Positions 36,573 to 59,720 of a stretch of 64,000 bases of DNA are shown here, one piece after another (the stretch's first letter is position 1; each line of letters starts with the position of its first letter). The stretch lies in assembly GCA_937903035.1 (NCBI GenBank), contig CALCZP010000004.1, forward strand, positions 84,465 through 148,464, read 5' to 3'. The notes under the pieces were generated by a model that worked only from the letters and a program-made list of their open reading frames with translations, was not told the DNA's origin and did not search any database. Both the position numbers and the translations under genes were made by a program. The DNA comes from an uncultured bacterium (lineage in GTDB: Bacteria; Patescibacteriota; Minisyncoccia; Phycocordibacterales; UBA9973).

Positions 36573-40262
<3,690 letters not shown>

Positions 40263-40490: not shown

Positions 40491-40491
40491 C

Positions 40492-40518
40492 AAAAAGCCC
40501 TCGATCGAGGGCTTTTTG
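40492..40518. terminator. hairpin AAAAAGCCCTCGATCGAGGGCTTTTT
   Basis: Palindrome with a GATC centre. It is a near-copy of the 9007-9048 hairpin core. Confidence 0.7.
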
Positions 40519-40522
40519 TTAT

Positions 40523-42374: not shown

Positions 42375-42379
42375 GGTAA

Positions 42380-44638: not shown

Positions 44639-44643
44639 GGTTA

Positions 44644-45204
44644 TTAAATGTTATACCAAGTAGTTCTTAGACCTTTAAGTGTTTCCAGGCCATTTGAAAG
44701 GAACGTCTCAACTGCATTTGCATTATCCAATACCTGTGCCCGACTAGATTTTAGTCGTGTCTCTTTTGTCATAACAATACCAGCCTCATGATGAGCTATA
44801 ATCGCATTAAGGAAACGTAAATCAAATGTGTCTCCTGTAGGACCAAGATTTGCCACAATTGGATCTCTCACACCTTTTGTATCTCCATACCAATCCTTTT
44901 TCCATGAATACAGTTCAGCGATAGCTTTTGGCTCATCTGCAAGAATATTCTGTGCTAAGGTCTTCATCTCCGGACGAGTAGTATTTTTAGCCAACTGTTC
45001 CGCAAGAAGCATTGCACCCCTATGATGAGAAATCATGGCGTTTACATATCGAAGATCAAAAGTTCTGTCCGCTTGGCCAAGACTCATGGTATTTTTATCA
45101 TACATCGATACTTTATAGTCAGGAGTTATATAATATCCAAAAGCAGCGCCCAATATTACACCAACAACTACTAAACCTAATGTTAAATATATTGATATCT
45201 TCAT
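44644..45204 (-). CDS. DUF305-family protein (copper-resistance-associated), membrane anchored
   Basis: Two repeats of the F.DLRY.NAMI.HH..A DUF305 signature. Confidence 0.65.
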
Positions 45205-45205
45205 A

Positions 45206-45481
45206 TTATTTTCTTTTTAATTTATAAACCTTGAGAACTTCACCTTTGGCTTTATCTACTTGACCAGAAGACATTTGATGATGAACACAATGACCTAAAT
45301 GATTCTCCATTAATATATCCTCGACAGAAGACAAGCTTTGTTTAACCGCAGATGTTTGTGTGATTACATCAATGCAGTAAGTGTCATTCTCGACTAATTT
45401 TTGTAAACCGCGAACCTGCCCCTCAATACGTTTGAGTTGCTTAATAATTTTCTCTTTTCCTTTTTCATCTATATACTTCAT
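45206..45481 (-). CDS. csoR: CsoR/RcnR-family metal-sensing transcriptional repressor
   Basis: IEGQVRGLQKLVENDTYCIDVITQTSAV with metal ligands C..H..C. The ORF track's first codon is TTG; ATG at 45481 is used here. Confidence 0.85.
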   Translation of the reverse strand: MKYIDEKGKEKIIKQLKRIEGQVRGLQKLVENDTYCIDVITQTSAVKQSLSSVEDILMENHLGHCVHHQMSSGQVDKAKGEVLKVYKLKRK

Positions 45482-45492
45482 ATACAAAGAGT

Positions 45493-45513
45493 ATATACCC
45501 CCTAGGGGTATAT
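45493..45513. promoter_or_regulatory. candidate CsoR operator: near-perfect palindrome ATATACCCC-CTAG-GGGGTATAT
   Basis: GC-core inverted repeat 12 bp upstream of the csoR start. It resembles known CsoR operators (TACCC...GGGTA). Confidence 0.55.
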
Positions 45514-45560
45514 GTCAAATACATCAGTTAAATCAGGGGGGTGATATTGATAGTGTGAAT

Positions 45561-46925
45561 TTATATTCCGAAACTTTGAAGTTTGTTTTCTGGAGGTTTG
45601 TGCGTTCCATTCTTTATTGCTTCGGAAACTTTTCTGTATTCATCACCAAATTTCTTTCCAATCTTTTCAAACTCCGAAGGCTTCAGTTCTTTTGGACGAT
45701 TATATCGATACCAGCATCTGTATCGTATTGGCAGATCAGGATAATCTTTCATATTCACATAGGCGATATTCTCTATCTTTTCTGGTGGCTTATATTTATT
45801 CGCATTTGCAGGATTTTTTAGAATCATCATTTCTTTGAATGCCTCCTCGACATGCTTCCATGGTTGAGAGTTGTATCCATCTTCATCATCCAAGCTCATA
45901 CTGAAATCGCAATGACCATCATCTTGCCCAGGTATATACCAAATCTGTCCGTGTGCCCACATTGGAGCTGATATCTCAAAATCCGAAGCCTTGTCTCCTC
46001 CAGGATGTATTGACTCATCGTGTTTTTCTTCCATGTAGTAGTCGACGGATACAGTCGACATATCGAGCAAGTATTCGCGAGAAAAAATTGTATATAAACC
46101 GAATCTATCTGTGCCCGGAACACTCTTTTCCAAATCCTTGATTGATTTTGCGTCAGGATACCTTTGAGGCCAAAGTATTCGGTTACGATCGTCCAGAAGT
46201 GGATACGCTTTGAATAAGCCTGGCATTTCCCCATGCTTTATTCCTTTGTACAAAGTGATCATTATTGAACTTGGATGAAGCAGGTTTCCTAGAACAACAA
46301 TGTTTGTCTTCTCACTTCCGATAGACCAAATCTCTCCCATAAACCAATCATGAAAGAGACGTATCTGTTTGCCATCTTGGAATGATGTCATATCTTCCAT
46401 GTCATCACAGATGATGAGATCGGGACGATGATTGCGATACTTTAGTCCACGAATATTCTGTAACGCTCCGATGCACATGATTTTTGCTCCGTATTTCGGT
46501 ATCTCAATTGTAAACGCACCCCAATCTTCCTTGCTCGCTTGGAATGGACCAAGATCGTTTTTCAATAGCTCGTTCTCTTCAAGTTCTTGTTTGATGCTGT
46601 TGAAATGAGACTGTGACTGAACTCTGGTTTTAGACATGATTACTATAAACTTTTTCTGATGTTTTCCAAGAATACTCCACAGAGCATTAGAGAGGTTCAG
46701 AATGGTCGATTTTCCTGAACCTCGAAATGCCATGAACACGTTGAGCTTGTGTTGGTATTCTTCTGTAATGCGGAACATCTCCTTATGGAACCATGCGAAC
46801 TCGTACGTGATATGTCTCTGAAGATAGATACGGCAAAATGCCTCGTGATTTTCATATACGAGTGCTTTTCGTACGGCAACATCATTGATGATTGCCTGTT
46901 TAAGTTCAGGAGACAATTCTTTCAT
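45561..46925 (-). CDS. phage terminase large subunit-like ATPase/nuclease
   Basis: Walker A FRGSGKST, Walker B DLIICDDMED, and a C-terminal nuclease-like acidic region. Confidence 0.75.
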   Translation of the reverse strand: MKELSPELKQAIINDVAVRKALVYENHEAFCRIYLQRHITYEFAWFHKEMFRITEEYQHKLNVFMAFRGSGKSTILNLSNALWSILGKHQKKFIVIMSKTRVQSQSHFNSIKQELEENELLKNDLGPFQASKEDWGAFTIEIPKYGAKIMCIGALQNIRGLKYRNHRPDLIICDDMEDMTSFQDGKQIRLFHDWFMGEIWSIGSEKTNIVVLGNLLHPSSIMITLYKGIKHGEMPGLFKAYPLLDDRNRILWPQRYPDAKSIKDLEKSVPGTDRFGLYTIFSREYLLDMSTVSVDYYMEEKHDESIHPGGDKASDFEISAPMWAHGQIWYIPGQDDGHCDFSMSLDDEDGYNSQPWKHVEEAFKEMMILKNPANANKYKPPEKIENIAYVNMKDYPDLPIRYRCWYRYNRPKELKPSEFEKIGKKFGDEYRKVSEAIKNGTHKPPENKLQSFGI

Positions 46926-46927
46926 GG

Positions 46928-47314
46928 CTACTTAAAGTGAGATAGGGCCTCTTCGAGGAGTTCCTTTTGGTGCTGGTTAAGTTCGACTTTTTTCTGAGCA
47001 CGAATAAACATATCTTTCTTCTCCTCAGACATGTATGCTTTATGTCTGTTTCTGAGCCAGAATGCCACTGCTTGAAATTTCTTCTCTTTCAAGAGGGCGA
47101 CGAGCTGACTTTCAGATAGATCGTTTATATACTCCACACCATCGATCCTTGCGTTTTCAACATCGGTCTTGAAGTCATCGCTTTCTTCACACCAGCGGTA
47201 GAAAGTAGCTCTTGATATCCCGACTTTGGCACAAGCATGACTTGTGATTGGGACGGCACGTAGTTGTTCAAGCAGAAGTTCTTTCTGCTTCTTTATTGTT
47301 TTTACAGTAGCCAT
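46928..47314 (-). CDS. terminase small-subunit-like HTH protein
   Basis: HTH ACAKVGISRATFYRWCE. It is adjacent to and co-oriented with the large terminase. Start placed at the internal Met. Confidence 0.5.
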   Translation of the reverse strand: MATVKTIKKQKELLLEQLRAVPITSHACAKVGISRATFYRWCEESDDFKTDVENARIDGVEYINDLSESQLVALLKEKKFQAVAFWLRNRHKAYMSEEKKDMFIRAQKKVELNQHQKELLEEALSHFK

Positions 47315-47315
47315 A

Positions 47316-48638
47316 TTAGTTGATCTTCTTACGCTTTTTACCAGTCTCTTTCTCCCAGCGACGCATAATGACTTCGGCATAAACGTGTGATTTCTCCATA
47401 ACAAAGCATCTTCGACCCATCTTTATCGAAGCGATGAGAGTTGAACCAGAACCACCGAATGGCTCAAGGATGAGATTGTCTCTTTTGGTCAAAACTTTGA
47501 TGTATGGAATGAGAAGCTCAATCGGTTTTGTCCCGAAGATTATCTCTTGCCCTGATGATTTCTTATCTGCGGCTGGATGAGCAATGAAATCGGTAGGACA
47601 AATTTTCTTTCCTTTCTCATACTGCTCCCAGTGAGGTTTTCCTGCTGTGGCAAAGAGAGCATTCTCATACTCATTCTGAAAAATCGCATCTTCTTCTACT
47701 AGATTAAGAGGTGTGCTACCAGAGTTTCCAACCAAAGCGATATCTGTCTTGTTGAAGAATTTGTACTTAGACGAAAATCCCTGCATACGATTCGACACAT
47801 GCCACGTGATGGTGTTTCTATACTTCCAATGCTTCTCAAGAGCAGTCCAAATCGTCTTTAGATTTTTTGGATTCTCAAAGATGATGATTGAGAAGTCGGG
47901 CTTTTGCACTTTAGCAACATTTGCCATCCATAGATCCGAGAAGTTGTCCGGCAATACATCAGTCTCAAGATAGCGACGATTCTTCTTTGCTCCGAATCCA
48001 ACAGTTGGACCATCTTTACCTCGACCTTTTCCTTTGAGGTAATTAAGAATATATGGCGGGTCAGTGAGAACCATATCAGCTTTGTTTTCACCCATGAGTT
48101 TAATCATGTCAGCCTCAACAGTAGAGTCACCAATCATGATTCGAGAACCATCGAGGTCGTACACATCTCCTTTCTTTGCTTTGACTGTGATATCTAGCTT
48201 GTCGAGTTCCTTTTGGAGATCAAACTGTTCCTCATTTATTTCCGCAGGAAAAATATCGTCGATTTCCTCTGAGCTAAAACCGATATCTGTGAGAAGTGAC
48301 TCATCGAATTCAGCGAGGAGATCAAGATCAAACTCTCCTTGGTTTTTATTGAGTCGCAGGTTGAGTTCAGACTCCTTTTCAGGTGTGAGATTAACAAATA
48401 CGACAGGCATATTCTTGTACCCAAGCTCTTTGCAGACTTCAAGTCTGAAGTGACCGCCAACCACAACGTTCTTTCGGTCGGGATGGGAATTAACGATAAT
48501 GGGATCGACGTTGCCAAACCTCTTGATGCTCTCCGTGAGACTCTTCTTTTGTTCATCGCTCCACTTGCGTGGGTTCTTGTCGTTTGCGACAAGGCTGTCG
48601 ATTGAGATGTACTCAATCTTTAGATTTTCTTTATGCAT
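47316..48638 (-). CDS. ParB-like nuclease domain fused to an N6-adenine/N4-cytosine DNA methyltransferase
   Basis: N-terminal ParB/Srx motif (NPRKWSDEQKKSLTESIKRFGNVDPIIV) and an MTase with DPPY and EPFGGSGST. Confidence 0.85.
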   Translation of the reverse strand: MHKENLKIEYISIDSLVANDKNPRKWSDEQKKSLTESIKRFGNVDPIIVNSHPDRKNVVVGGHFRLEVCKELGYKNMPVVFVNLTPEKESELNLRLNKNQGEFDLDLLAEFDESLLTDIGFSSEEIDDIFPAEINEEQFDLQKELDKLDITVKAKKGDVYDLDGSRIMIGDSTVEADMIKLMGENKADMVLTDPPYILNYLKGKGRGKDGPTVGFGAKKNRRYLETDVLPDNFSDLWMANVAKVQKPDFSIIIFENPKNLKTIWTALEKHWKYRNTITWHVSNRMQGFSSKYKFFNKTDIALVGNSGSTPLNLVEEDAIFQNEYENALFATAGKPHWEQYEKGKKICPTDFIAHPAADKKSSGQEIIFGTKPIELLIPYIKVLTKRDNLILEPFGGSGSTLIASIKMGRRCFVMEKSHVYAEVIMRRWEKETGKKRKKIN

Positions 48639-49020
48639 ATACTTTGCTTTTTAATTAATTTCTAAAAAGCAAAAGACCATCTTTATCGTTAAGTTTCCTT
48701 AACTGCAAAGATGGTCTTTCGAGAAGCGGTGCACGACTCAAAAAACACTCTTAACTTTACAGTTAAAAGAAATTTCTTTGAGCAGTGTAGGAATATAACC
48801 TTCAGCATTTCCTACCTTAGTAGGGGTCTGCGAATCTATATCCAGCCGCTGTGAAGAATGATTGAAAGTGTAGAGAGTTCCTCCTAGTAGGAGGGTTTTC
48901 CCAGCCGTCAATCCGATATGAGGATGTCAATTGCTCTGAAAGTATTATCTACCTAACTAAACAAAAATACAAGACGATGTTTAGTTAAAGAATACATGAA
49001 AACCCTTTTTTAATTTGTCC

Positions 49021-49959
49021 TTATACTAAAAGGCTTTTCTTAAGTTCGGTCATTACAAAATCCTTAAATATAAGACAGTTATCCACAACTTGCTTAAGTA
49101 TGTATTCTTGTTCCTCAAACTCTTTTTCGAAAGAAACAGGTTCTACCTCCAATCTAAAACTTACTGATTTACCAGTCATGACCAATTCCATATTTGGAGG
49201 TAGCTTATTATAGTCTTGAAGTAATTCTTCATATTGAGAAGCCATGCCACTTAACTCAAGATCAACATATCCTTTCTCCATCTTATGAATAAGGCGTGTA
49301 TTTTTTAAAAGCCAGAAGGGACTGAAATACACAAAAGAAGATGCTGTCGGCTTTACTTTAGGTTGAGGCATATTTAATTCCTGTAATGTGCCTGATATAT
49401 ACAAATAATATTTCTTCCAAAACTCTGTAACAACCTCATCCTTTATAGCTTGATATCCTCTTCGTTCTTGTTCAATCGCAAGACGAAGAATTTCTGATTT
49501 GTACCATGATCGTAAAGAGGCGTCTTTAGAAAACCAAGTAAGTATTTCCTCATAAGAAACAGAGTACTCAAACTCACTTTTATTATCAATATAAGCCTTA
49601 GGAGCAACAAGAATGACCGCGGTCTCAATATTAGGTCCAGCAAGAAGTTCTGCACGCTTCATGTATCGATCATACTGAGCATCTTGAAACATAGCGTCAA
49701 CTTTGTTTTCAATTAGAAGAAACAATTTCTTTTGATTAAAAACAAATTCAGCTTGAATGTCAGTCTCTCCGAGCCCTGCGGTTGTCACACTTCGATATGC
49801 TTTTGAGAATATAAACTCTGGCTTACCAACAACTTTTAAAAATAACTTTTCTAAGCCTGTATTTGCATATAGTTCTTCTAATATCAATAAATCAATATCT
49901 CGTTCACGCACGGATTCGACTATCGGGAATGTTGCACCATTATTTTGAATTGCCTCCAT
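49021..49959 (-). CDS. protein with an N-terminal RecB/Cas4-like PD-(D/E)xK nuclease domain and a C-terminal domain of unknown function
   Basis: ERDIDLLILEE (motif I/II), ETDIQAEF, LLIENKVDA (ExK) and FQDAQY (QxxxY). Confidence 0.5.
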   Translation of the reverse strand: MEAIQNNGATFPIVESVRERDIDLLILEELYANTGLEKLFLKVVGKPEFIFSKAYRSVTTAGLGETDIQAEFVFNQKKLFLLIENKVDAMFQDAQYDRYMKRAELLAGPNIETAVILVAPKAYIDNKSEFEYSVSYEEILTWFSKDASLRSWYKSEILRLAIEQERRGYQAIKDEVVTEFWKKYYLYISGTLQELNMPQPKVKPTASSFVYFSPFWLLKNTRLIHKMEKGYVDLELSGMASQYEELLQDYNKLPPNMELVMTGKSVSFRLEVEPVSFEKEFEEQEYILKQVVDNCLIFKDFVMTELKKSLLV

Positions 49960-49964
49960 AATAG

Positions 49965-50867
49965 TTATTTCCTCCAGAAGATTAGCGACTTAAAGAACCC
50001 TGTGACTCGCTCTGTAAATGTTGGCTTTGGAGCTTCTCCCACTTTCGCAGGCGTAACTGGCTCTTCAACCTCGGTAGTTGTTGAGACCACAGGCTCAATC
50101 ACTTTTAGTGTCTCGACCTTTGGTTTCTGTTCAGCTTTTGGAGTAGGTTTAATTTCAGAAGCAGGAGTATTAACAACAACCTCTTTTACCTCCTCAATGA
50201 CTGGAGGGGTTGTTGTAGCTTTCTGTGATTTTTTAGCAAAGAAGTCAGGATACTTAGCTCGATAGAGTTGCTCAACTTTGTAAGCGTTCACTGGATTCAT
50301 TTTCTGAAGCAGTTTGAACTGAGCCACCTCTTGATCATCGGGGAGCGATTCAAGCCAATCGAAATATTCTCCGATGGTTATCTGCTTTTGTGGAGGCTGG
50401 ATTGCTTGCTCGTATACTTTGGTGTACTTGTCGTATTCGAGTTGCTGAATCTTGAGCTTGAGTTCGGCGATTTCAGCCTCTTTTGCTTTCATATCAATTT
50501 GAGATTGATATGAAGACCTTTGAGATTCTAGGTCAGCAATCTGTTTGGAGTACTTGGTATCAATTTCAGAAAGCTCCGCCTTGATTTGCTCCGTCAGACC
50601 ATAGGTGCCAGTGAGATAGTTTTTCTTGGCATCTCGTTCGTTCTTTAATTCAAGAATTCTGTTATCAATGTTTCCAATTGATGATGCAGAATTATTTTGC
50701 AATTGTGCCTCAAGTGATTTGAGACGATATTCTAAAGCTGACTTTTCCTCCTGCTGTTTGATGGATACATCTGCGGGCAGATAGTTATAGTCGGTTGCGT
50801 GTGCGATGGTTGCTTGGAATACAAATATTCCTAGCACGAACACGCATGTTCGTATGATTTTGTTCAT
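49965..50867 (-). CDS. secreted coiled-coil protein with a Pro/Thr/Lys-rich C-terminal region
   Basis: Signal peptide MNKIIRTCVFVLGIFVFQATIAHA, long heptad-like segments, and a PTPKAEQKPK tail. Confidence 0.5.
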   Translation of the reverse strand: MNKIIRTCVFVLGIFVFQATIAHATDYNYLPADVSIKQQEEKSALEYRLKSLEAQLQNNSASSIGNIDNRILELKNERDAKKNYLTGTYGLTEQIKAELSEIDTKYSKQIADLESQRSSYQSQIDMKAKEAEIAELKLKIQQLEYDKYTKVYEQAIQPPQKQITIGEYFDWLESLPDDQEVAQFKLLQKMNPVNAYKVEQLYRAKYPDFFAKKSQKATTTPPVIEEVKEVVVNTPASEIKPTPKAEQKPKVETLKVIEPVVSTTTEVEEPVTPAKVGEAPKPTFTERVTGFFKSLIFWRK

Positions 50868-50871
50868 AAGC

Positions 50872-51042
50872 CACTGTAGCGGTTTTAGCCTATTAACTGA
50901 TAATAGGCGGAGAATCTTGAGTCTTGCGACTGAAGACTCCTCGCCATTGTGATCCAACCTTTCGGTCAGACCCATATATCCTTTCGGATACACGACCGCT
51001 ACAGTGACTCTGACGAGGAGTCTTCAATACTGTAGCGGTTTT
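50872..51042. repeat. interleaved repeat system A1-B-A'-B'-A2 in the leader of the 49965-50867 gene
   Basis: A1 CACTGTAGCGGTTTT at 50872-86. B TGAAGACTCCTCG at 50931-43. A' ACCGCTACAGTG at 50995-51006. B' CGAGGAGTCTTCA at 51014-26. A2 ACTGTAGCGGTTTT at 51029-42. Confidence 0.75.
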
Positions 51043-51185
51043 GCTATTCCGACCATATCCTAGGAAACTAAGGGTTTTCTAGGGGTTAGGTCTTTGTTGT
51101 ACAAGAACATGATAGCAAATTTTTGGCTATCTTTCTAGACTTTAGCTTACATTTAGGGAGTTGCGAAGCCTGAGTTGTCGACAGT

Positions 51186-51731
51186 CTATTTTGTCTTCTT
51201 TTGCGAACCAAGACCTTTCATTAGATATTCCTTTTCATGACCATGGACCTTGTCCATAACAGCAAGTAAATCCTCAAAAATATTAAAAGCTTCTCGAAGG
51301 TGTTCACTGGCTTTGGTTTGAACTTTACTGTCATAACTTGCCTGATCTTTAATATCTTTCATTTCAGAGTAATCAACTAATTTATATTCTGCTTCAACAT
51401 TGTGCAAAACAAGATTCCTGCTCTTCTTGAATTTACTTATCCTCGAATAAAGTTTTTCATCTAGCACATCCTTGTTTTTCAAAACCAAAAAGATTGCCAT
51501 ACCATCGAAACCAACACGCCCTTTTATATTATGAAGATGGTTAATAAGAGATTGCGCTTCAAAAGAGTTGAAAATCTGTCTCAAGATTGATTCACCAGTA
51601 TTATCAATAATTGAATCAGCACCTGCGAATGCTTGAGCAAAATAACCCTTATTTGCTGGATCAAGCACGAACTTACCCCAATCTATTGAGATACCAGAAT
51701 ATTTACCATCCCATGTGACTCTCGATTCCAT
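51186..51731 (-). CDS. hypothetical protein, last gene of the CHAT operon
   Basis: 181 aa. Its start lies 2 nt from the stop of the 984-aa gene. Confidence 0.5.
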   Translation of the reverse strand: MESRVTWDGKYSGISIDWGKFVLDPANKGYFAQAFAGADSIIDNTGESILRQIFNSFEAQSLINHLHNIKGRVGFDGMAIFLVLKNKDVLDEKLYSRISKFKKSRNLVLHNVEAEYKLVDYSEMKDIKDQASYDSKVQTKASEHLREAFNIFEDLLAVMDKVHGHEKEYLMKGLGSQKKTK

Positions 51732-51733
51732 AA

Positions 51734-54676
51734 TTATTTGAGTACATCTTTTAGCCCCCAGAACATACTGCTTCCTTTCTCAATCAGGACGTTAATGAGA
51801 TCTTCGACCTTAGCCTTAAACGAAGGATTTTTGTAGATAATTTCTAGAGCTTCTTTAATTTCTCCATCAATACTGAATAAAGGTGCACGTCGATTCGTGT
51901 TCAACTCGTCTTCATTCAACAAATACTGCTTAATGACACCTAAGGTACTTTCAGGATCAATAGTTGCGAATATTTTCAAACGTCGAGTAAGCCCATAATC
52001 CCAATCAATATCACCTTTTGATTTCTCAAGAGTTATTGCAAGATTCTTGATGATGATTTTCTCATCAATTATCTCCTTATCAGGATTCACCCAAAATCCA
52101 AAACCAGAGAAGGCTTTCGGCTCAATCGGAATACCTGTTGAAATAATCCAATTCCAAAACTCTACAAGTTTATCCTTGCTTACATTGTTTTCCTTAAACC
52201 AATCATCGCCAGCCTGACTTCGAGTGATACAACTTCGACCAATAAAGGATACGAATTCGTAATGACGAGCTTCGTTTGGTGTCTTCCAAAATAGTTCAAA
52301 GAGTGGATCAGTAATTTTGAAATCAAAATGAGCATAAGCCAGTGCCAAATGGACAGCCAGTGTCTCATCAAGACCTTTCAAATATTTCCTATCTGGATAA
52401 ATATTTGGATTTAGCTTTATCGCATACTCGTAATAGCCACGAAGTTCATCAAATAACTCCTTGTACAGAGAACTTGCCAGGTATCCTTCCCAAGTAGCAA
52501 AATACAGTTTTTCTTTTCCTGATTCTTTAGGGAATATCTTCGATAGGAGTCCTTTAACAAAAGTAATGTCACGGAAGTAGAATGACGCAAGGAACTGACC
52601 AAGGGTGAATCGAACCGCATTCGATGTTTCTGTATCAAGAACCTGCTCAAACAAAACCTTAACTTCATTTGAAAGTGTCTTGTTGCTTTCGTTGTAAGCA
52701 AATTGGACAAAAGCTCGATACGCCTGTCCTCGAACGGAATTTATCGCAACATGAGCAGGTTCATTGGACTCACGCTTATCATCTTCAACATCAGGACTGC
52801 TCTTAATGGTAAAGAGATATTTGATGATGCTGAATATTTTTGCCTGATTATCTTTGAATGTATTTGAGTCCTTGATGGTTGCAAGTATCTCAAGAAGAAC
52901 ATCCGCTATAGATTTATGGACGGTTATCCAATCAGCAAGATAAACCCGCTCTTCCATTGGCTTAAACTCTTCTTTCTCACCCGATTGTCGAATGAGATCA
53001 AAGAAATTAATAACCTGTATGAATTGCTCATCTGTGAACGATTCCTTTGCCCTCAAACTGTCTTCAACTTGTCGCAGTATTGAGTAAACATAGTTTGGAG
53101 AAATAACACCCCTGTCAAAAAACTTATTAAGGTTTGATAGATAATCAGCCTTTCGAGCTTTAAAGTCTTCCTTAATGGCATCACCTAAGCCTTCGGGACC
53201 ACGAGGACTTAAGAAATCATCATTCTTATACTTTTCCTTCAACACCGCTGGAGATGCGTCAGTTTTCAAATGATCAATGAGAGCATCAATGGTCATTTCT
53301 GATGGATTAAATGGTGTTTTGTGATTCACAATACCTCCCATTCCGCCCATGACAGTAGGATGAGGAGTAATCTGACCATCTTCTAACAACTTTCCGAAGA
53401 TGGACTCAGCCTTTGTAATTTCTTCAGGAGTTAGGTACTTTTTTATATAAGTAAGTATCTCTAAACCGTCACGTTTCCTCCATTTTTCTTTATCAGCATC
53501 GTCTAGTTTTGCTCCGTAGTATTTAATAACATTTTCAACATATTCTCGTTGCTCGGTATCCTTATCTAGAGCGTTAAACCCAGCAATCAACCCCTGGTGA
53601 TATTCAGCTCCTGTATCAATCTCAAAGTAGCGTTCACCAACATTAAACACACGGAACAAGAATTCCTTTATCTCCGACTTAAACGCATCAGGACATCGTG
53701 TAATTGCATATAACTTAAGCCTCCAAGAGGTAAGAGCGTCGGGTAATGTGGCAATATTTTCTAAATAGATGCGACGAACCTCTGCGACATCATCACACTT
53801 ACCGCCAAGAATTATCTCAATGAGAGTTTTTATTGTTGCTATGAAATTCTGAATATCTTCTCGGAAATGAGACCTCTTGTCCGTATCTAATTGTAGTGTG
53901 AATACACTCACATCGAGTAGATAGAATGGCTCTGACTTGTCAAAGACGGTTCCGTCTTTTTCTACACCAATGTCAGTAATTTTTGTAAGGATTTCAGACA
54001 ACAACTTCAAAAACTTTTCCTTATCGGGATTGTTTTGATCAAGAATAAGTTCAAATATTCCAGTCTCGCTTACATCACCGAGATAGAATAACTTATCTGT
54101 TATTGAGAAACGCTCAATGTTGGCAAACTCTTCTTTATCCCTAACCGTAAGTACTACTCTAGCGAGATCGTAGATTGCCTCATAATCCTTTTCTTGAGCA
54201 AACTTCTCAGTCATCTTCTTGTATTCATATCCGGAACGACCAAAACGAGACATGAGTTTCAACCAGTTATCTGAATACATTTTTGGAAGAATCTTCTTTA
54301 TCTGAGCAACTGGCAAAAGACCAGTGATCCAGAAGAACCTGTCGATGACCTCAGGGTTGAAGGTATCTTTTGAAATTGGTGTTGAAAGAATTATCTCAGC
54401 GACTAATTCAGGTAGTTTTTCTGCCATTCGAGTAAGATACTCAAGTTCAGAAAGACGATATCCATATTTACTAGGATCTTCCGACTTCTTTTTTAATTCA
54501 TCAAAAAGACCGTTATCAAAAAACCACTTAAGCCAAGCTTCGTTTGCCTTCGAAAATAGATAGCGCTTTGAGTCTTCATTGCTTTCGATAAAATTTTTTG
54601 CAACTTCAATAGATGCAACTGATGGGCCAGCTGTTACGAATTCGTCTATTTTTTTGTGTATTTGAAGTTGGTTCAT
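51734..54676 (-). CDS. large (about 980 aa) predicted alpha-helical protein of unknown function, translationally coupled to the CHAT protease
   Basis: ATG (MNQLQIHKK) 4 nt after the CHAT stop. The protein is Leu/Lys/Glu-rich and helical. No NTPase motifs seen. Confidence 0.55.
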   Translation of the reverse strand: MNQLQIHKKIDEFVTAGPSVASIEVAKNFIESNEDSKRYLFSKANEAWLKWFFDNGLFDELKKKSEDPSKYGYRLSELEYLTRMAEKLPELVAEIILSTPISKDTFNPEVIDRFFWITGLLPVAQIKKILPKMYSDNWLKLMSRFGRSGYEYKKMTEKFAQEKDYEAIYDLARVVLTVRDKEEFANIERFSITDKLFYLGDVSETGIFELILDQNNPDKEKFLKLLSEILTKITDIGVEKDGTVFDKSEPFYLLDVSVFTLQLDTDKRSHFREDIQNFIATIKTLIEIILGGKCDDVAEVRRIYLENIATLPDALTSWRLKLYAITRCPDAFKSEIKEFLFRVFNVGERYFEIDTGAEYHQGLIAGFNALDKDTEQREYVENVIKYYGAKLDDADKEKWRKRDGLEILTYIKKYLTPEEITKAESIFGKLLEDGQITPHPTVMGGMGGIVNHKTPFNPSEMTIDALIDHLKTDASPAVLKEKYKNDDFLSPRGPEGLGDAIKEDFKARKADYLSNLNKFFDRGVISPNYVYSILRQVEDSLRAKESFTDEQFIQVINFFDLIRQSGEKEEFKPMEERVYLADWITVHKSIADVLLEILATIKDSNTFKDNQAKIFSIIKYLFTIKSSPDVEDDKRESNEPAHVAINSVRGQAYRAFVQFAYNESNKTLSNEVKVLFEQVLDTETSNAVRFTLGQFLASFYFRDITFVKGLLSKIFPKESGKEKLYFATWEGYLASSLYKELFDELRGYYEYAIKLNPNIYPDRKYLKGLDETLAVHLALAYAHFDFKITDPLFELFWKTPNEARHYEFVSFIGRSCITRSQAGDDWFKENNVSKDKLVEFWNWIISTGIPIEPKAFSGFGFWVNPDKEIIDEKIIIKNLAITLEKSKGDIDWDYGLTRRLKIFATIDPESTLGVIKQYLLNEDELNTNRRAPLFSIDGEIKEALEIIYKNPSFKAKVEDLINVLIEKGSSMFWGLKDVLK

Positions 54677-54680
54677 AATT

Positions 54681-55718
54681 TTATACACATGAATATAGAA
54701 GTGGAATATACTCTCTCTTCTTCGGGCCTGAATAATATGATCCTAAAGATGTTTTATATACCTCCTCAATTTCTTTCCCAGTCGTAAGATTTTTATAGAA
54801 TAGTTCTGTAAATTCTTTTGCAGAAAGTTCACCAACAGGATCTCGATACGCGATTACATAACGCGAACAACCAGATTTGATTATTTTAAAAGCAAGACTC
54901 TCTTTGTTTAAAATTCCACCCCCAGAATAGCAAAGTGACAGAAAAATTAATTTTTGATTACTATCCTTTATAAGTTCAACAAAATCATCTGGGGAAAATT
55001 TTTTTGTCTCTTTATATTTTGTATGGTCGTCATCTTCCAAACAAAGATTTCCATCCTGATCACCGTGCATAACAATATGAACCAGCGAATAATCCTTCCA
55101 AGAAACACCCTTAATCGACTCAGTAGTTGTGTGTTTTAATAGTAAAATACTATCAACTCGAAAATATTGCTGATTATTTTCAATAAGAAAATGTAAAGAG
55201 TTGTATATAGATTTAATCTCATCATCCATGACTGCCTTCAAGTCAGATCCCACACCTTCATGGGCATGAGACATAAGCATTACAAGATTATTGTCTTCTT
55301 TTACTTGGGGCTCTCTAACTGGGGTAGAAACTTTTCTTACTATATATAAATTATTATCTTTGAGATTTTCCCATGGAAGCTCGAGAAATACAGAAAAATC
55401 AGATCTGATTGTTAGCTGATCATCTTCTAAATTTTCAGCAATTTTAATTTCCTTATTTACGAATTCTAAAACCTTCTGAAGGTCTGGTCCTTGTTTCGAG
55501 AAAACAGGATTAATATCTGAACTTTTACCTATACCAATTTCTGGTGTTACAACTGTTGTTACGTCTTTGTTTCTTAAATACTCACTATGAAAATCATCGA
55601 ACGATATTAATACAAACTGACCGTTAGATTTATTGGTTTTAACACTTAAATACAAACCTCCTTTTATTGATTCTTTTTCGCCATCTTTAACTTGTTTAAG
55701 TTCGCAATAGATTTCCAT
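54681..55718 (-). CDS. caspase-like (CHAT / peptidase C14 fold) protease with an N-terminal domain of unknown function
   Basis: His-Cys dyad in caspase order: SLVHIVMHGDQDG ... about 40 aa ... KLIFLSLCYSGGG. Confidence 0.6.
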   Translation of the reverse strand: MEIYCELKQVKDGEKESIKGGLYLSVKTNKSNGQFVLISFDDFHSEYLRNKDVTTVVTPEIGIGKSSDINPVFSKQGPDLQKVLEFVNKEIKIAENLEDDQLTIRSDFSVFLELPWENLKDNNLYIVRKVSTPVREPQVKEDNNLVMLMSHAHEGVGSDLKAVMDDEIKSIYNSLHFLIENNQQYFRVDSILLLKHTTTESIKGVSWKDYSLVHIVMHGDQDGNLCLEDDDHTKYKETKKFSPDDFVELIKDSNQKLIFLSLCYSGGGILNKESLAFKIIKSGCSRYVIAYRDPVGELSAKEFTELFYKNLTTGKEIEEVYKTSLGSYYSGPKKREYIPLLYSCV

Positions 55719-55739
55719 AATTTACTAATAATTCAACGC

Positions 55740-56264
55740 CTAAGAAACAGAGGGTAATCCTAGTCGGTTCAGAGTTATTGCCTCGAAGAAATAATCACAA
55801 TCCACCTCTTTAATATAAGCGAGCACATCTTTATACGCTGGTGCCTGAAACCACTCACTTAGAATATAGATATATTCAACTTTAACGCCTAGAGAATTGA
55901 GAAGTTTTTCATACTGTCGTTTTTTGAAATGACATGTCTGTAATTTTTCATCAACAGACCCTGCAACATTTTGAAATTTGATTTCAATTACATAAAAAGA
56001 ATTGGTTGCCAATACAAAAATAGCATCATCGGGAAGGAGTTTTTTGGAAAGTATTTCCTTATGATTTACACCTTTCTCCTCTAAAAATTTATATAGACGA
56101 TTTTTCCGAAGATTAAGAGCGACTTTTTCTCCTTTAAAAAGAATCGAGCCATCTTCATGCACCTCATAACCAGGCACAGTTTTAAGCACTTCAAGAAAAT
56201 CCACTTTGCCCTCAAAGTGAAGTCCTGATTTTGTATTTGCTCCTCCTACGCCACCAATTTTCAT
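55740..56264 (-). CDS. small PD-(D/E)xK nuclease: either the restriction endonuclease of the adjacent DpnII-like R-M system or the first gene of the CHAT operon
   Basis: LPDDAIFVLATNSFYVIEIKF gives a PD...ExK motif. It lies 21 bp upstream of the CHAT gene on the same strand and is divergent from the Dam-like MTase. Confidence 0.55.
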   Translation of the reverse strand: MKIGGVGGANTKSGLHFEGKVDFLEVLKTVPGYEVHEDGSILFKGEKVALNLRKNRLYKFLEEKGVNHKEILSKKLLPDDAIFVLATNSFYVIEIKFQNVAGSVDEKLQTCHFKKRQYEKLLNSLGVKVEYIYILSEWFQAPAYKDVLAYIKEVDCDYFFEAITLNRLGLPSVS

Positions 56265-56334
56265 ATAACGTGATTATCTCACAAAAACGCCCTTAAATCT
56301 AGGATATAAAGGTAAAAAATGATAAAATGAAATT

Positions 56335-57252
56335 GTGAAGACAGATAACGTAAAAAAAGCAAAACCATTTCTAAAATGGGTCGGTGGCAAGGGTCAATTA
56401 TTGACTCAATTTCAGAGTCTCTTTCCTAAAAAATACAACTCGTATTTCGAACCATTTATTGGTGGAGGTGCTGTCTTTTTTTCTATCAACCCACAAAAAG
56501 CACACATAAACGATATAAACAAAACACTAGTTCAGACCTACACGCATATTAAGAATGATGTAGAGAAATTAATAAAATCTCTTGCAAAACTTGAAAAAGA
56601 ATTCCTTGCAAAAGACACTGAGGCACGAAAAGAATTCTATTACTCGATACGAGAAAAATACAACTCTTTATCTCACGAGGATTTCAAGAAAAGTCTCTAC
56701 TTCTTATTCTTTAACAAGACTGCGTTTAATGGTGTCTACCGAGAAAATTCAAAAGGTGGATTCAATGTGCCGATGGGTAGCTATAAAAATCCTAAAATCG
56801 TAGATGAGGAAAATCTTAGAGAGGTTTCCAAAATGCTTTCAAACACCAAAATAACAAGTGGTTCATTTGTTGATGCTGTAAAGAATGCAAAGGCTGGTGA
56901 TTTTGTTTACTTCGACCCTCCATACCACCCACTTTCCGAGACATCTAGTTTTACAAGTTATAGCAAGGATTCTTTTTCTAAAGATGATCAGATAAAGCTC
57001 CGAGATTTATTTGTAGAACTCGACAAGAGAGGTGTATACGTAATGCTCAGTAACTCAAGTGCGCCTTTTATTCAAGAAATATACTCTGGATACAAACAGA
57101 TTCCTGTTTATGCTAGTCGAATGATCAACTCAAAAGCAGATAAGCGCGGAAAGATATCAGAAGTCGTAATAATTAATTACGATCCGCAATCAAATCTTCA
57201 AAGCGTTTTTGAGAAAGATTTAAGTATTTCTTCTCAGTATCAATACCTATAA
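56335..57252 (+). CDS. Dam-family (alpha-class, D12) N6-adenine DNA methyltransferase
   Basis: KPFLKWVGGKGQLL and DPPY motifs. The start is GTG at 56335. A C-terminal extension overlaps the convergent MTase gene. Confidence 0.85.
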   Translation: MKTDNVKKAKPFLKWVGGKGQLLTQFQSLFPKKYNSYFEPFIGGGAVFFSINPQKAHINDINKTLVQTYTHIKNDVEKLIKSLAKLEKEFLAKDTEARKEFYYSIREKYNSLSHEDFKKSLYFLFFNKTAFNGVYRENSKGGFNVPMGSYKNPKIVDEENLREVSKMLSNTKITSGSFVDAVKNAKAGDFVYFDPPYHPLSETSSFTSYSKDSFSKDDQIKLRDLFVELDKRGVYVMLSNSSAPFIQEIYSGYKQIPVYASRMINSKADKRGKISEVVIINYDPQSNLQSVFEKDLSISSQYQYL

Positions 57253-57994
57253 ATCTTCGTCCGTGTTTCTTCGCGGCGATTCCTGTAGTTGAGCTTCCTG
57301 TAAAAGGGTCGAGAACTATGTCTCCCTTATTTGTACTAGCGAGTACGATTCGCTCAAGAAGTGAAAGTGGTTTTTGCGTTGGATGTTTGGTGAACTTCTT
57401 CTCTTCTTTCTTTGGTGGGTTAACTGCCCAAACCGAACGCATTTGTAAGTTCGGCTTCTTTATAAAATCTTCTGGCCACTCGCCATTTTTCATTAGTTCA
57501 TAATTGAAAGTGTGTTTTGCTTTCTTATGTTTTCTAGCCCAAAGAATTGTTTCGTGACTTGCTGTAAAAAATCGACAACTTAGATTTGGAGATGCGTTCG
57601 GTTTGAACCAAGTAATATCATTCAAAACATGGAAACCAATTGACTGAATAGCATGGCCACATTGATAGATAGAATGATAGGTACCACTAACCCAAATGGT
57701 GCCATGGGGTTTTAAAACACGATAACAAGCTTCTAGCCATCTTTTATGAAAGGCATAGTCAGCATCGAAGCCTTTGCTTTTATCCCAATCACCTTTGTTA
57801 ACGCTTACCATTTTCCCTGCGTGCACAGTAAAACCTCCATTTGAGAGCATATATGGAGGATCTGCAAAAATCATATCGATTGAGTTTTCTGGGAGAGTAT
57901 TTAAAAGCTCTATTGAATCAGCCAAATAGAGCACAAAATCCTTGTGCATAAAATACGGTTTTTGTTTTATTGAAGCTAAAATCTTTTTTGCCAT
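57173..57994 (-). CDS. beta-class N6-adenine DNA methyltransferase, DpnA / M.MboIC-like
   Basis: DMIFADPPY...VSVNKGDWDK...HPTQKP...DPFTGSSTTG, collinear with DpnA-type methylases. Confidence 0.85.
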   Translation of the reverse strand: MAKKILASIKQKPYFMHKDFVLYLADSIELLNTLPENSIDMIFADPPYMLSNGGFTVHAGKMVSVNKGDWDKSKGFDADYAFHKRWLEACYRVLKPHGTIWVSGTYHSIYQCGHAIQSIGFHVLNDITWFKPNASPNLSCRFFTASHETILWARKHKKAKHTFNYELMKNGEWPEDFIKKPNLQMRSVWAVNPPKKEEKKFTKHPTQKPLSLLERIVLASTNKGDIVLDPFTGSSTTGIAAKKHGRRFIGIDTEKKYLNLSQKRFEDLIADRN

Positions 57995-58117
57995 TTATAA
58001 GTACATTTTAGCTTAAAAGACATAAAACCTGAATAAAATTTACCTAAACTTACCTACAGTTTATCTACTTCGGACGCTCTAGACTCCTAAGAGGTTCAGC
58101 GTCATCAATGTGTTTGT

Positions 58118-59443
58118 ATGAAAATACAAAATCCGCTACAAGTGACGCCTGACGAGGTTGAGGCAAAACAACCGATTAAGTACTGCTTATATGCTCGTAA
58201 ATCAACCGAACAAGAAGATAAGCAGGCATTATCAATTGAATCGCAAGTCAGAGAGATGCAGGCTCTGGCTGAGCGAGAGAAACTGAACGTGGTCGAAATT
58301 AAGCGAGAAGCACACTCCTCTAAAGAAGTCGGACAGAGGCCTGTATACAATGAACTTCTCGCTGAAATCAAACAAGGAAAGTTTAATGGGATACTAACAT
58401 GGGCACCAGACCGCTTATCGAGAAATGCCGGTGACTTGGGAGCGGTAGTAGACCTGATGGATCAGAAGCTTCTTCTAGAGATCCGCACCTATGGACAGAA
58501 ATTTACAAACAATCCAAATGAAAAGTTCCTCCTCATGATTCTCGGATCACAGGCAAAGCTTGAGAATGACAACAAGATGGTGAATGTGAAGCGAGGACTC
58601 AGAGCAAGGTGTGAGATGGGCTTATGGCCATCAGTACCTCCAACAGGATACTTGAGCAATCCTGATAGAAATAGAAAATGTGAAGTAATAACCGATCCAG
58701 CAAGAGGTCACATTATCAGGCAAATGTTCGAGAAAGTGGCATATGATGGCTGGTCAGGACGAAAGCTGTATAAATGGATGGCACATGACCTCAAATTTAA
58801 AACAAAGAATGGCAAACCATTAACATTGAGCAATATTTACATAATTCTCAAAAACACTTTCTACTACGGAGAATTTGAATACCCAAAAGCAAGTGGACAA
58901 TGGTATGTCGGAAAGCATGAACCTGTGATAACCAAAGACTTGTACCTACAGGTTCAAGATAAAATTACATCGGATTCAGTAATACATGCACAAGACAAGG
59001 AGTTTGCATTCACAAAGATGATGACATGTGGATTGTGTGGATCGGGAGTGACGGCAGACGAGAAATTTAAGAAACTCAAAGATGGTACAACGGCACGATA
59101 CGTGTACTACGGATGCACGAGATTTAGGGATAAAGATTGTCCGTGCGGATACATACGAGAAGAAGACCTGATTGAACAACTCGCAAATATACTGGATACC
59201 GTGTCACTGAACGAGATTGGGATGAAAGACAAGATCAAATCAGAGATTGAAGCACATACAGAATTTCAAGAATCAGTACTTGGAAAAGCAGTTAAAGAGA
59301 AGATAAAGATTAAGGAGGTCGATATACGAAACTTCGCCAAGCATATCTTAAGAAAGAGACCGATCTACGAAAAGAGAGAGCTATTAAGCAATCTGAGAAG
59401 CAAGTTGGTGTTAAAAGACAAACAGATAAGCATGATGAATTAG
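58118..59443 (+). CDS. large serine recombinase (resolvase catalytic domain, recombinase domain, zinc ribbon)
   Basis: Catalytic CLYARKSTEQ Ser motif, LSRN, recombinase domain, and CGLCGS...C zinc ribbon. Confidence 0.85.
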   Translation: MKIQNPLQVTPDEVEAKQPIKYCLYARKSTEQEDKQALSIESQVREMQALAEREKLNVVEIKREAHSSKEVGQRPVYNELLAEIKQGKFNGILTWAPDRLSRNAGDLGAVVDLMDQKLLLEIRTYGQKFTNNPNEKFLLMILGSQAKLENDNKMVNVKRGLRARCEMGLWPSVPPTGYLSNPDRNRKCEVITDPARGHIIRQMFEKVAYDGWSGRKLYKWMAHDLKFKTKNGKPLTLSNIYIILKNTFYYGEFEYPKASGQWYVGKHEPVITKDLYLQVQDKITSDSVIHAQDKEFAFTKMMTCGLCGSGVTADEKFKKLKDGTTARYVYYGCTRFRDKDCPCGYIREEDLIEQLANILDTVSLNEIGMKDKIKSEIEAHTEFQESVLGKAVKEKIKIKEVDIRNFAKHILRKRPIYEKRELLSNLRSKLVLKDKQISMMN

Positions 59444-59454
59444 GCAAACAAAAA

Positions 59455-59478
59455 ACCACCCGAAGGGGTGATTTTTTG
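59455..59478. terminator. short hairpin CACCC-gaag-GGGTG plus T6 after the recombinase gene
   Basis: Read directly. Weak stem. Confidence 0.4.
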
Positions 59479-59618
59479 TTCTGGATACTGCGCTCAGCAG
59501 GTATGCAATTTACGGAATAGTATCGTGTGTTTTACCTTAGTTCGAGCCCATGACTGGTGCTCAGAACTTTTATTCCTAAACGGCGATTTTAGCCGTCTAG
59601 GTAGGTCTCACATGACTG

Positions 59619-59689
59619 CTGCCGAACCTGGACTCGAACCAAGATAAACGGTACCAGAAACCGTTGTCCTACCATTAGACGATTCGGCA
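59619..59689 (-). tRNA. tRNA-Gln (anticodon CTG)
   Basis: Minus strand TGCCGAATCGTCTAATGGTAGGACAACGGTTTCTGGTACCGTTTATCTTGGTTCGAGTCCAGGTTCGGCAG folds as a cloverleaf: 7-bp acceptor with U1-A72, D-loop with GG, anticodon loop TTCTGGT, T-loop TTCGAGT, discriminator G. Confidence 0.8.
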
Positions 59690-59720
59690 ATATTGATCGT
59701 CTTGCGCCTCACTATACCTA

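Follow-up and report, generated by a model that had tools for sequence, protein, structure and literature searches.

TPR-CHAT proteases include Csx29 of the type III-E Craspase, Borvo BovA and eukaryotic separase, and CHAT proteases activate by cleavage in type III-E Craspase and gasdermin systems. Dsr1 (defence-associated sirtuin 1) and Avs7 belong to a shared sensor family (Gao 2020; Garb 2022, 10.1101/2021.12.14.472415; Nature 2026, PMC13581612). The sensor common to the two is bilobed and sharply bent, detects the phage major capsid protein and is also found in proteins that have no NTPase and carry other effectors (PMC13581612); CHAT as an effector of this sensor is absent from the main text of PMC13581612. 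In DSR2, SIR2 is joined to a HEAT-like solenoid, and this binds the tail tube protein of the phage (PMC11087589, PMC11850899).

Here we describe a locus in a 64,000-nt stretch of a Patescibacteria (CPR) genome (the window), in which a CHAT protease gene (B) directly precedes the gene for a large helical solenoid (C). We consider it rather probable that the two form an anti-phage module on an integrated mobile island, with C as the sensor and B as the effector.

Organization of the locus

All four open reading frames of the run, A, B, C and D, were confirmed on the minus strand. The stop codon of A is followed after 21 nt by the ATG of B, that of B after 4 nt by an ATG at 54676 (gene C), and that of C after 2 nt by the ATG of D; the 21/4/2-nt spacing reported in the first-pass annotation is borne out by the junction sequences. 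A terminator was looked for inside the A-B-C-D gene run and none was found. The remaining description of the surroundings also holds: GC content is 0.33-0.39 at 51-57 kb vs about 0.45-0.49 elsewhere, in line with the AT-richer block that had been noted, and the methyltransferases, serine recombinase and phage terminase named as neighbours are all present, as a Dam methylase, an N6_N4 methylase, a large serine recombinase and the small and large terminase subunits. The defence-island setting proposed there is confirmed, the surroundings being a mobile island rich in defence genes. Among the island ORFs scanned, there was no match to any capsid family, the terminase genes notwithstanding.

The protease and its solenoid partner

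Gene B (54681..55718, minus strand; 345 aa) is, by its family match and catalytic dyad, a CHAT protease (caspase-like, clan CD) and the predicted effector. Residues 135-319 match Pfam CHAT PF12770 (E 4.7e-8, 33.2 bits vs a cut-off of 24), which is present in 7/7 database homologues of B. The predicted catalytic His218 (codon at 55065..55067, minus strand) lies within HIVMHGD (residues 214-220) and the predicted catalytic Cys263 (codon at 54930..54932, minus strand) within FLSLCYSGG (residues 259-267); both residues, in the contexts MHGD and SxCYSGG, are invariant in 9 sequences with identity down to 37% (alignment A3). The caspase-type His...Cys dyad recognised at first reading is therefore upheld by an above-threshold PF12770 match and by its conservation across the family. 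The unassigned N-terminus, put at about 180 aa, was overestimated and measures about 105-135 aa: a domain of ~105 aa that has no family is followed by the CHAT domain from about residue 108; the CHAT-type FLELPWE motif begins at 111 and the Pfam match at 135. PDB sequence and profile searches with B gave no match, and the CHAT part matched PADLOC BovA weakly (E 0.0053).

Gene C was listed as an ORF of 984 aa from a GTG at 54688 (54688..51734). The ATG at 54676 is the likely start, because the resulting 980 aa agree with the lengths of homologues and with the L047 gene call on the same contig. Gene C (51734..54676, minus strand; 980 aa) is predicted to encode a free-standing sensor of the Dsr1/Avs7 type. 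Structure prediction gave an all-helical HEAT/TPR-like alpha-solenoid (pLDDT 89.7), and comparison of the model with the PDB returned solenoids only; the Avs4-portal complex was the sole prokaryotic entry among the top matches and had the best TM-score among the matches listed (0.35). These results agree with the first description of the protein as all-helical, sensor-like and devoid of an enzymatic signature. Searches with the C of the window gave no Pfam or NCBIfam match and no PADLOC match at E<=0.1. Neither B nor C matched a SIR2 domain, the solenoid beginning right at the N-terminus of C, and neither matched a STAND NTPase (P-loop) family. The C family is large and unnamed (2126 clusters) and occurs mainly in Patescibacteria; just 2 viral contigs in IMG/VR carry it, and it is also found outside such mobile islands, for example in L044, where it lies beside genes for CTP synthase and ribosomal proteins.

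The sequence link of C to Dsr1 runs through P0201, a full-length member of the C family that aligns with the C of the window over its full length (BLASTP, 31.6% identity, E 2.6e-134). Residues 843-1287 of P0201 (445 residues) match positions 791-1201 of 1227 of PADLOC Dsr1 (E 2.4e-19), and the equivalent region of C comprises residues 525-959 in the 984-aa numbering (51812..53116, minus strand). Because the C of the window itself lacks a match in the three libraries, the link is transitive and covers the C-terminal 45% of C only. Two family motifs, AINSVRG (52727-52747, minus strand) and ATWEGYL (52478-52498, minus strand), lie in this region of C. Two further proteins are picked up by the C-family HMM, a plasmid protein of Legionella and, in its C-terminal part, a P-loop ATPase of a haloarchaeon; both share AINSVR and WEGYL-type motifs with the C family, and the distant haloarchaeal protein is the only C relative with a P-loop. 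The occurrence of C-family sequence in these two proteins mirrors the published Avs7/Dsr1 architectures. By this transitive route, C most likely belongs with the Dsr1-type sensor solenoids. The statement that the partner set matches no named system has to be qualified by the link of the C family to the Dsr1 sensor, a member of the sensor family common to Avs7 and Dsr1 (PMC13581612).

Linkage of C and CHAT homologues elsewhere, a check named in the first-pass annotation, proved strict: each of the roughly 15 B-type CHAT loci found has a C homologue directly after the CHAT gene (the window, L013/L056, L042, L044-L046, L053-L055 and L057-L063), with a B-to-C gap of about 1-30 nt and B identity down to 32%. 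In most C relatives the place of the CHAT gene is taken by an uncharacterised helical domain of ~200 aa (U), which occurs as a separate gene, in tandem or joined to the C protein at its N-terminus; among about 37 species-level loci, 31 carry U, separate or fused, at the site upstream of C. The C proteins that have a CHAT partner are scattered through the C tree. Since U occupies the partner position in most relatives, CHAT appears to be one of several interchangeable effectors. A backbone of serine recombinase, U or CHAT, C, a 342-aa protein, a ParB-methylase and terminase recurs among the islands. The genes upstream of C modules are dominated by restriction-modification (R-M), and Shedu and Schlafen-like helicase genes also lie nearby.

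Flanking genes

Gene A (55740..56264, minus strand; 174 aa, PD-(D/E)xK-like) lies outside the CHAT module and is probably the endonuclease of an adjacent two-methylase type II R-M system. Both methylases are immediately upstream of A: a Dam-family (D12 class) N6-adenine DNA methylase (56335..57252, plus strand; MethyltransfD12 E 2.5e-69, TIGR00571 dam E 9.8e-92) and a beta-class N6_N4 DNA methylase (CcrM/DpnA-like; 57173..57994, minus strand; N6_N4_Mtase E 2.3e-63, PADLOC MTase_II E 1.6e-101). We base the assignment on A homologues in other phyla, which directly follow homologues of the two methylases. In N. gonorrhoeae, a 46%-identical A homologue begins 3 nt past a 56%-identical homologue of the 273-aa methylase, and on a Leuconostoc plasmid a 34%-identical A homologue comes directly after a 44%-identical Dam homologue. 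The PD...ExK motif of A, first described as clean, is nuclease-like, but the HMM scores are sub-threshold (PDDEXK_11, E 6.8e-4, 19.8 bits under a cut-off of 23.7), and the match to PADLOC REase_II is weak (E 0.0053). Most other CHAT loci lack A, among them the CHAT-C loci L013, L042, L044 and L045; the closest relative, L046, retains the A-B-C order. Type II R-M cassettes of the DpnII/MboI type have two methylases. As in such cassettes, genes for a Dam-class methylase, a beta-class N6_N4 methylase and a small endonuclease stand side by side here; unlike DpnII, A has 174 aa, and it does not match the DpnII endonuclease family. L017 and L040 do have true DpnII genes, upstream of their C.

Gene D (51186..51731, minus strand; 181 aa) is a weak candidate for a HEPN RNase. 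An HEPN-type Rx4H motif, RNLVLH, was read directly off the sequence (residues 105-110; 51402..51419, minus strand), and the top matches in two libraries were HEPN families, both below threshold (HEPN_Cthe2314, E 0.038, 14.4 bits, cut-off 27.1; HepT, E 0.021, 14.7 bits, cut-off 60). The PDB search with D gave no match, and in public data exact copies were found and no other homologue. The gene that takes the slot of D in L025 has RIKIVH and a significant HEPN_Cthe2314 match (E 9.8e-12). At other loci the slot after C often holds nucleases (RNase H, SNase, Mrr and DpnI-like genes, and a HEPN gene whose match is significant) and also accepts unrelated genes (UvrD, kinase, ExoVII); in several CHAT-C loci (L042, L055) it has no gene or one that runs on the other strand. 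Even in L046, whose C is 92% identical, a different gene stands where D would be, so D does not qualify as a conserved partner. Its position in a hypervariable slot makes its membership of the system uncertain; D may be an optional second effector, a substrate of the protease or just the next defence gene of the island.

Discussion

The first-pass annotation proposed that A, B, C and D constitute one new four-component defence system. The close spacing of the four genes on one strand suggests co-transcription, the run shows no internal terminator, and L046 has A-B-C in the same order; however, A is absent in L013, L042, L044 and L045 and, in Neisseria and Leuconostoc, has homologues that pair with those of the neighbouring methylases, and D was found as exact copies only and is replaced in L046. 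On these comparative data the proposal is largely refuted and we regard it as very improbable, since A probably belongs to R-M and D is not conserved, which leaves B and C as the core. A narrower version would retain D in a protease-activated toxin cascade, in which CHAT, on sensing, cuts D (a HEPN RNase pro-toxin) or C and thereby frees RNase activity. The 2 nt between the C stop and the D start, the Rx4H motif and HEPN best matches of D, and the frequency of nucleases in the same slot of other loci would fit such a cascade, but L042 and L055 among the CHAT-C loci have nothing or an opposite-strand gene in the slot, which elsewhere holds UvrD, kinase or ExoVII genes, the HEPN call for D falls under every curated threshold, and D as a separate, stand-alone defence gene explains the arrangement equally well. 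We rate the cascade as unlikely.

B and C could also be functionally coupled to R-M, as a back-up or guard that fires on inhibition of R-M and not on a capsid protein (cf. PrrC with EcoprrI). Many U-C and CHAT-C modules start -35 to +14 nt from the end of a same-strand R-M gene, the R-M types involved are very diverse (type II, type III, Eco57I/MmeI-like and type ISP), methylase motif IV occurs in the first or second gene upstream in 12/35 loci, with DpnII-type cassettes in two further loci, and the layout of the window is alike, with the R-M endonuclease and then B. Against this stand the homology of C, which suggests a sensor of phage proteins (Dsr1 link; PMC13581612), and the many loci that lack upstream R-M and have a serine recombinase, a Schlafen-like helicase or unrelated genes instead. 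CPR defence islands are, moreover, rich in R-M genes generally, and a single sensor would hardly watch unrelated types of R-M enzyme; we judge a guard function unlikely. A role outside defence, as a split separase-like or TPR-CHAT host regulatory protease or in an island function such as helper-phage sensing, seems more doubtful still. Helical-repeat CHAT proteins are also developmental (the name CHAT derives from HetF), C belongs to the recurring island backbone that runs from serine recombinase to terminase, and the island combines terminase genes with 0 capsid-family matches among the ORFs scanned; yet the C family also occurs outside islands, as in L044 with its ribosomal and CTP synthase genes, is carried by just 2 IMG/VR viral contigs, and combines defence-rich surroundings with effector swapping and the link to Dsr1.

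The reading that we favour is a two-gene module of B and C. In it, C would be a free-standing TPR/HEAT-like solenoid sensor of ~980 aa, homologous to the common sensor of Dsr1 and Avs7, and B a separately encoded CHAT protease effector that docks on C, probably via its small N-terminal domain. We infer that binding of a phage protein by C would switch on B, that the activated protease would cleave host or phage proteins, and that infection would thereby be halted. In most relatives, the same sensor would be paired with or fused to U instead of CHAT, and A would merely be co-transcribed with the module.

Comparison with described systems

The predicted B-C module resembles Dsr1/Avs7 in its helical-repeat sensor of about 950-980 aa, in an effector position on the N-terminal side that is swapped among relatives, and in its defence-island location with signs of horizontal spread; like the Dsr1-type branch, it has no STAND NTPase. 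The C family is linked by sequence to the Dsr1 model, although the C of the window itself falls below direct HMM detection. Unlike Dsr1, B and C lack a SIR2 domain, and the predicted effector is a CHAT protease with a gene of its own instead of an N-terminal fusion; unlike Dsr1/Avs7, the C family is largely confined to Patescibacteria. The logic proposed for B-C is also that of DSR2, with a small effector and a large alpha-solenoid that directly binds a phage structural protein, and no NTPase; for B-C such binding is a prediction.

With the TPR-CHAT proteases the module shares a caspase-like CHAT domain and a large helical-repeat region, which is predicted to control the protease here as it does there. 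The helical part of B-C is, unlike theirs, a separate protein encoded downstream and not an N-terminal fusion. Unlike Csx29 in Craspase, B has no Cas7-11, crRNA or Csx30/31 nearby, and the similarity of Borvo BovA to B is limited to the protease domain. Neither the four genes nor their neighbours include the hallmarks of type III-E Craspase, CHAT-effector CBASS or Borvo (Cas7-11/crRNA, a CD-NTase cyclase and a single protein of the BovA type), in agreement with the earlier remark that no cyclase or Cas signature is visible.

The phage major capsid protein is known to trigger a protease-based defence, Lit, with the involvement of EF-Tu, and EF-Tu has reportedly been found, along with capsid protein, bound to Avs7. 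The parallel between B-C and the Lit/Gol exclusion of phage T4 (Yu & Snyder 1994, as cited in PMC13581612) is speculative and purely functional; Lit, unlike B-C, is a zinc metalloprotease that has no solenoid sensor and no homology to B or C. If our reading is correct, B-C would represent a CHAT protease acting as a separately encoded effector on a sensor of the Dsr1/Avs7 type, a new two-gene form built on a known kind of sensor.

A protease gene beside a predicted sensor

Sequence comparison across loci identifies a two-gene conserved unit in the window, namely a caspase-like protease gene (B, 345 aa) beside a gene for a predicted free-standing sensor of the Dsr1/Avs7 type (C, 980 aa). The two lie among the four minus-strand ORFs that the first-pass annotation had described, all of which are present in the ORF list as stated: a 174-aa nuclease-like ORF (A), B, C and a 181-aa protein (D). 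In the junction sequences, 21 nt separate the A stop codon from the B ATG, 4 nt the B stop from the C ATG, and 2 nt the C stop from the D ATG. The mechanical ORF list begins C at an upstream GTG (984 aa). Because homologues measure 978-985 aa and the gene call on an identical public contig is 980 aa, the ATG at 54676 is the likely start of C. An AATTATG context is common to the start codons of C (54676), B (55718) and D (51731), with no obvious Shine-Dalgarno sequence before any of the three, and the promoter and terminator scans were uninformative, their counts not exceeding the shuffled expectation.

Protein families of B and C

B matched the Pfam CHAT family above its curated threshold (E 4.7e-8), and all 7 of the homologues present in a 5.8-billion-sequence collection carry PF12770. 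In an alignment of 9 sequences reaching down to 37% identity, His218 (MHGD), Cys263 (SxCYSGG) and the motif FLELPWE are invariant; FLELPWE marks the start of the CHAT domain, and the first ~105 residues are without family assignment. The family match and the invariant His and Cys bear out the earlier caspase-like CHAT call; B is by sequence a CHAT protease, for which we infer a caspase-like fold from the family match.

C had no direct match in Pfam, NCBIfam, PADLOC or PHROGs and was not found in an annotated phage collection, and among 2.9 million IMG/VR contigs just 2 encode a homologue. The homologous proteins all come from Patescibacteria metagenome-assembled genomes, and none is named. Profile search of 1.84 billion cluster representatives returned 2126 clusters at E ≤ 0.001 and 363 at E ≤ 1e-30. 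Searches of the PDB by sequence and by profile gave no match for A, B, C, D or P0201 (a distant full-length member of the C family). The AlphaFold2 model of C, computed from a 69-sequence alignment, is all-helical with a mean pLDDT of 89.7; among its listed Foldseek matches, which comprise karyopherins and the Avs4-portal complex, the latter had the best query TM-score (0.35). This model and its matches support the original guess of a helical scaffold or sensor, and C is predicted to be an alpha-solenoid of a large unnamed family.

Exchangeable partners upstream of C

We fetched 41 species-level C loci (handles beginning with L denote loci from other genomes, metagenomes or plasmids), of which ~37 had an intact 5' side. 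In 31 of these ~37, C was preceded by or fused to a ~200-aa helical domain that we name U. As a separate protein, U is a family of ~180-280 aa encoded just upstream of C, often with a 4-nt overlap; as a fusion it forms a ~170-215-aa N-terminal extension, which gives rise to a second C length class of 1150-1200 aa. P0201 carries two tandem U domains. We had also considered that the long C forms (~1150 aa) were C+D fusions, and rejected this because the additional sequence lies at the N-terminus and is of the U family. U had no family match, and its invariant residues are N87, W90, S97, R99, H152 and H153. No U-like ORF or sequence occurs in the window, and kinship of U with A, B or D was rejected at hhalign probabilities below 1%.

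A B-type CHAT gene takes the U position in the window and in L013. Look-ups of B homologues and a metagenome scan with the B alignment added the CHAT-C loci L042, L044, L045, L046 and L053-L063. The pairing of CHAT and C genes thus recurs elsewhere: each B-type CHAT gene found, at identities to B down to 32%, has an adjoining C homologue, which starts ~1-30 nt past the CHAT stop codon. When C proteins are arranged in a neighbour-joining tree, those paired with CHAT are scattered among those paired with U, so that CHAT and U are interchangeable beside one conserved protein. The C of the window, for example, shares 71% identity with the U-partnered C of L001 but only 47% with the CHAT-partnered C of L013, and sliding windows along C detected no partner-specific drop in identity in any region. 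Such an exchange would be the pattern expected of effectors docked on a common sensor.

Relationship to the Dsr1/Avs7 sensor

In a PADLOC scan of distant family members, P0201 matched the model of Dsr1 (a SIR2 anti-phage protein) with an E-value of 2.4e-19, its residues 843-1287 aligning to positions 791-1201 of a model 1227 positions long. Window C is homologous to P0201 along its whole length (31.6% identity, E 2.6e-134), and the Dsr1-matching region of P0201 corresponds to C residues 525-959. The putative link between window C and Dsr1 is transitive via P0201 and spans the C-terminal 45% of C.

The C-family HMM also reached two plasmid-encoded proteins, both containing the AINSVR and WEGYL-type motifs of the C family. 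One is a 789-aa Legionella protein (L064:3705-6074, E 1.9e-17) encoded directly after an IS3 transposase gene; as it starts 40 nt past that gene, it may be truncated. The other is a 1510-aa haloarchaeal P-loop ATPase from Natrinema (L065:1473-6005) whose Walker A motif reads GPAGVGKTG and whose C-terminus, the part found by the HMM (E 4e-10), is C-like; this protein looks Avs7-like. Judged by profile and motif, both are distant relatives of the C solenoid outside Patescibacteria (CPR).

A large TPR-like sensor is common to the STAND NTPase Avs7 and the SIR2 protein Dsr1 (Nature 2026, PMC13581612; preprint PMC12803255), and is also found without an NTPase, joined to NADase, nuclease, kinase or HEPN-like effectors (PMC13581612). 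The sensors listed in that work number 9,097. Phage major capsid protein triggers both SeAvs7 and EcDsr1 (PMC13581612), and Dsr1 has been shown experimentally to be an NAD-depleting defence protein. The P0201-Dsr1 match and the motif-sharing Legionella and haloarchaeal relatives agree with this published sensor (PMC13581612). For B+C itself, we infer the defence role, the trigger and the substrates.

Genes flanking the B-C pair

A scored below threshold against both PDDEXK_11 (19.8 bits, cut-off 23.7) and a PADLOC type II REase model (E 0.0053). Homologues of A came up when plasmid records were searched by tblastn. The one in Neisseria gonorrhoeae (46% identity) starts 3 nt past a 56%-identical homologue of the 273-aa methylase encoded in the window, and the one on a Leuconostoc plasmid (34% identity) immediately follows a 44%-identical counterpart of the window's Dam methylase. 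The gonococcal record (L051, NZ_CP119142.1, 2.17 Mb) is entered in PLSDB as a plasmid and is evidently a chromosome; the A homologue in it aligns as two separate tblastn segments, covering query residues 1-144 and 145-171, a break that points to a frameshift or stop after roughly residue 144. A is kept in L046, the closest CHAT-C relative, and absent from L013, L042, L044 and L045. Given these methylase-paired homologues and the absence of A from most other CHAT-C loci, A most plausibly serves as the endonuclease in a type II restriction-modification (R-M) cassette with two methylases, which is by chance co-oriented with B. The first-pass inclusion of the nuclease in the set is accordingly not upheld, and in annotation A goes with the R-M system, outside the CHAT module.

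D contains an Rx4H motif (RNLVLH), and in each of two libraries its top match is a HEPN family, scoring far under the threshold. Public assemblies hold only exact copies of D, and no close relatives were found in JGI metagenomes. In other loci a same-strand gene often follows C by 1-45 nt and differs almost every time: a significant HEPN_Cthe2314 protein (L025), RNase H-like, SNase, DpnI-like, Mrr with a zinc ribbon, UvrD, kinase, SWIM, and many of no known family. L046 has another gene in D's place although its C is 92% identical to window C, and nothing occupies the slot in several loci, among them L042 and L055, which have CHAT-C. D may be an optional second effector, a protease substrate or an independent defence gene.

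Two more island genes lie 3' of D. The product of one (49021-49959, 312 aa) resembles PDDEXK_4 nucleases and matches PADLOC PDC-S26 weakly. The other (49965-50993) encodes a coiled-coil protein of 342 aa whose N-terminal part includes a hydrophobic segment; it is conserved along with the island backbone, at 36% identity in L001. The gap between D and the GTG start of this second gene measures 192 nt. Within it, immediately upstream of the GTG, lies a 10-bp inverted repeat, CCGCTACAGT ... ACTGTAGCGG, enclosing a loop of ~25 nt (50995-51035).

Island and restriction-modification context

The B-C-D module lies within a ~20-kb integrated island (40000-59700, GC 0.33-0.43), consistent with the AT-richness relative to the remainder of the window noted earlier. 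At one end are tRNA-Gln (59618-59689) and an adjoining large serine recombinase (58118-59443), and at the other a copper-resistance cluster with a CopA-type P-type ATPase (42380-44638) and CsoR-like, DUF305, DsbD-like and cupredoxin genes. Neighbouring genes further include the Dam and N6_N4 methylases, a ParB-methylase fusion (47316-48638) and small (46928-47404) and large (45561-46925) terminase subunits. No capsid family was matched among the island ORFs scanned. The island backbone is also found in L001, L042 and L045, and the island may be a satellite-like or defective element.

We counted the two nearest upstream genes at 35 loci. R-M proteins comprised N6_N4 methylase (8), ResIII (6), Eco57I (5), MmeI methylase (4) and DpnII (2), together with HpaII, EcoRI methylase and type ISP genes, mostly on the same strand as the C module and at gaps of -35 to +14 nt; at 5 loci a serine recombinase stood in their place. 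This R-M-dominated context fits a defence-island location. U-C and CHAT-C very often begin within a few nt of the end of a same-strand R-M operon (L004, L006, L014, L015, L017, L023, L025-L027, L034 and L040). Packing in such islands may account for the adjacency, or, as a less probable rival explanation, it could reflect functional coupling of the module to R-M. The operons concerned are of unrelated types: DpnII-like type II, type III Mod/Res, type ISP, and PLD-SNF2 with an Eco57I-type methylase.

Discussion

A joint reading of these features, which we consider improbable as a whole, would combine a C hub, two effector positions, a proteolytic relay and an R-M-attached second layer. Free-standing C would be a docking hub with effectors encoded in trans on both sides, the upstream position holding CHAT or U and the hypervariable downstream position HEPN, RNase H, SNase, Mrr-like or other genes. 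On sensing of a phage protein, CHAT would cleave and release the downstream toxin, and the cassette, routinely placed at the 3' end of R-M operons, would provide a second defence layer in genome-reduced CPR. If true, such a pattern-recognition system would be modular, encoded by several genes, free of any NTPase and equipped with a proteolytic relay, and U would represent a new fold or activity among effectors.

To our knowledge, phage defence in Patescibacteria is almost unexplored, and many canonical systems are lacking there. Literature searches yielded no named CHAT-plus-solenoid system in CPR. B+C offers a concrete pair for studying effector activation in trans by a solenoid sensor that has no NTPase, and poses the question of which targets a CHAT protease has during abortive infection. 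U, as a widespread unannotated ~200-aa partner domain, is a candidate new effector; it merits testing, as do the split CHAT form and the hypervariable downstream slot.

The sensor concept has already been published. With B+C, the Avs7/Dsr1 family of capsid sensors would gain a form that is split over two genes and has a caspase-like protease as its effector, and would also reach into Patescibacteria. Unlike in Dsr1 and Avs7, the predicted effector of the B-C pair is a protease and is supplied in trans, and the C family is a large CPR-centred branch.
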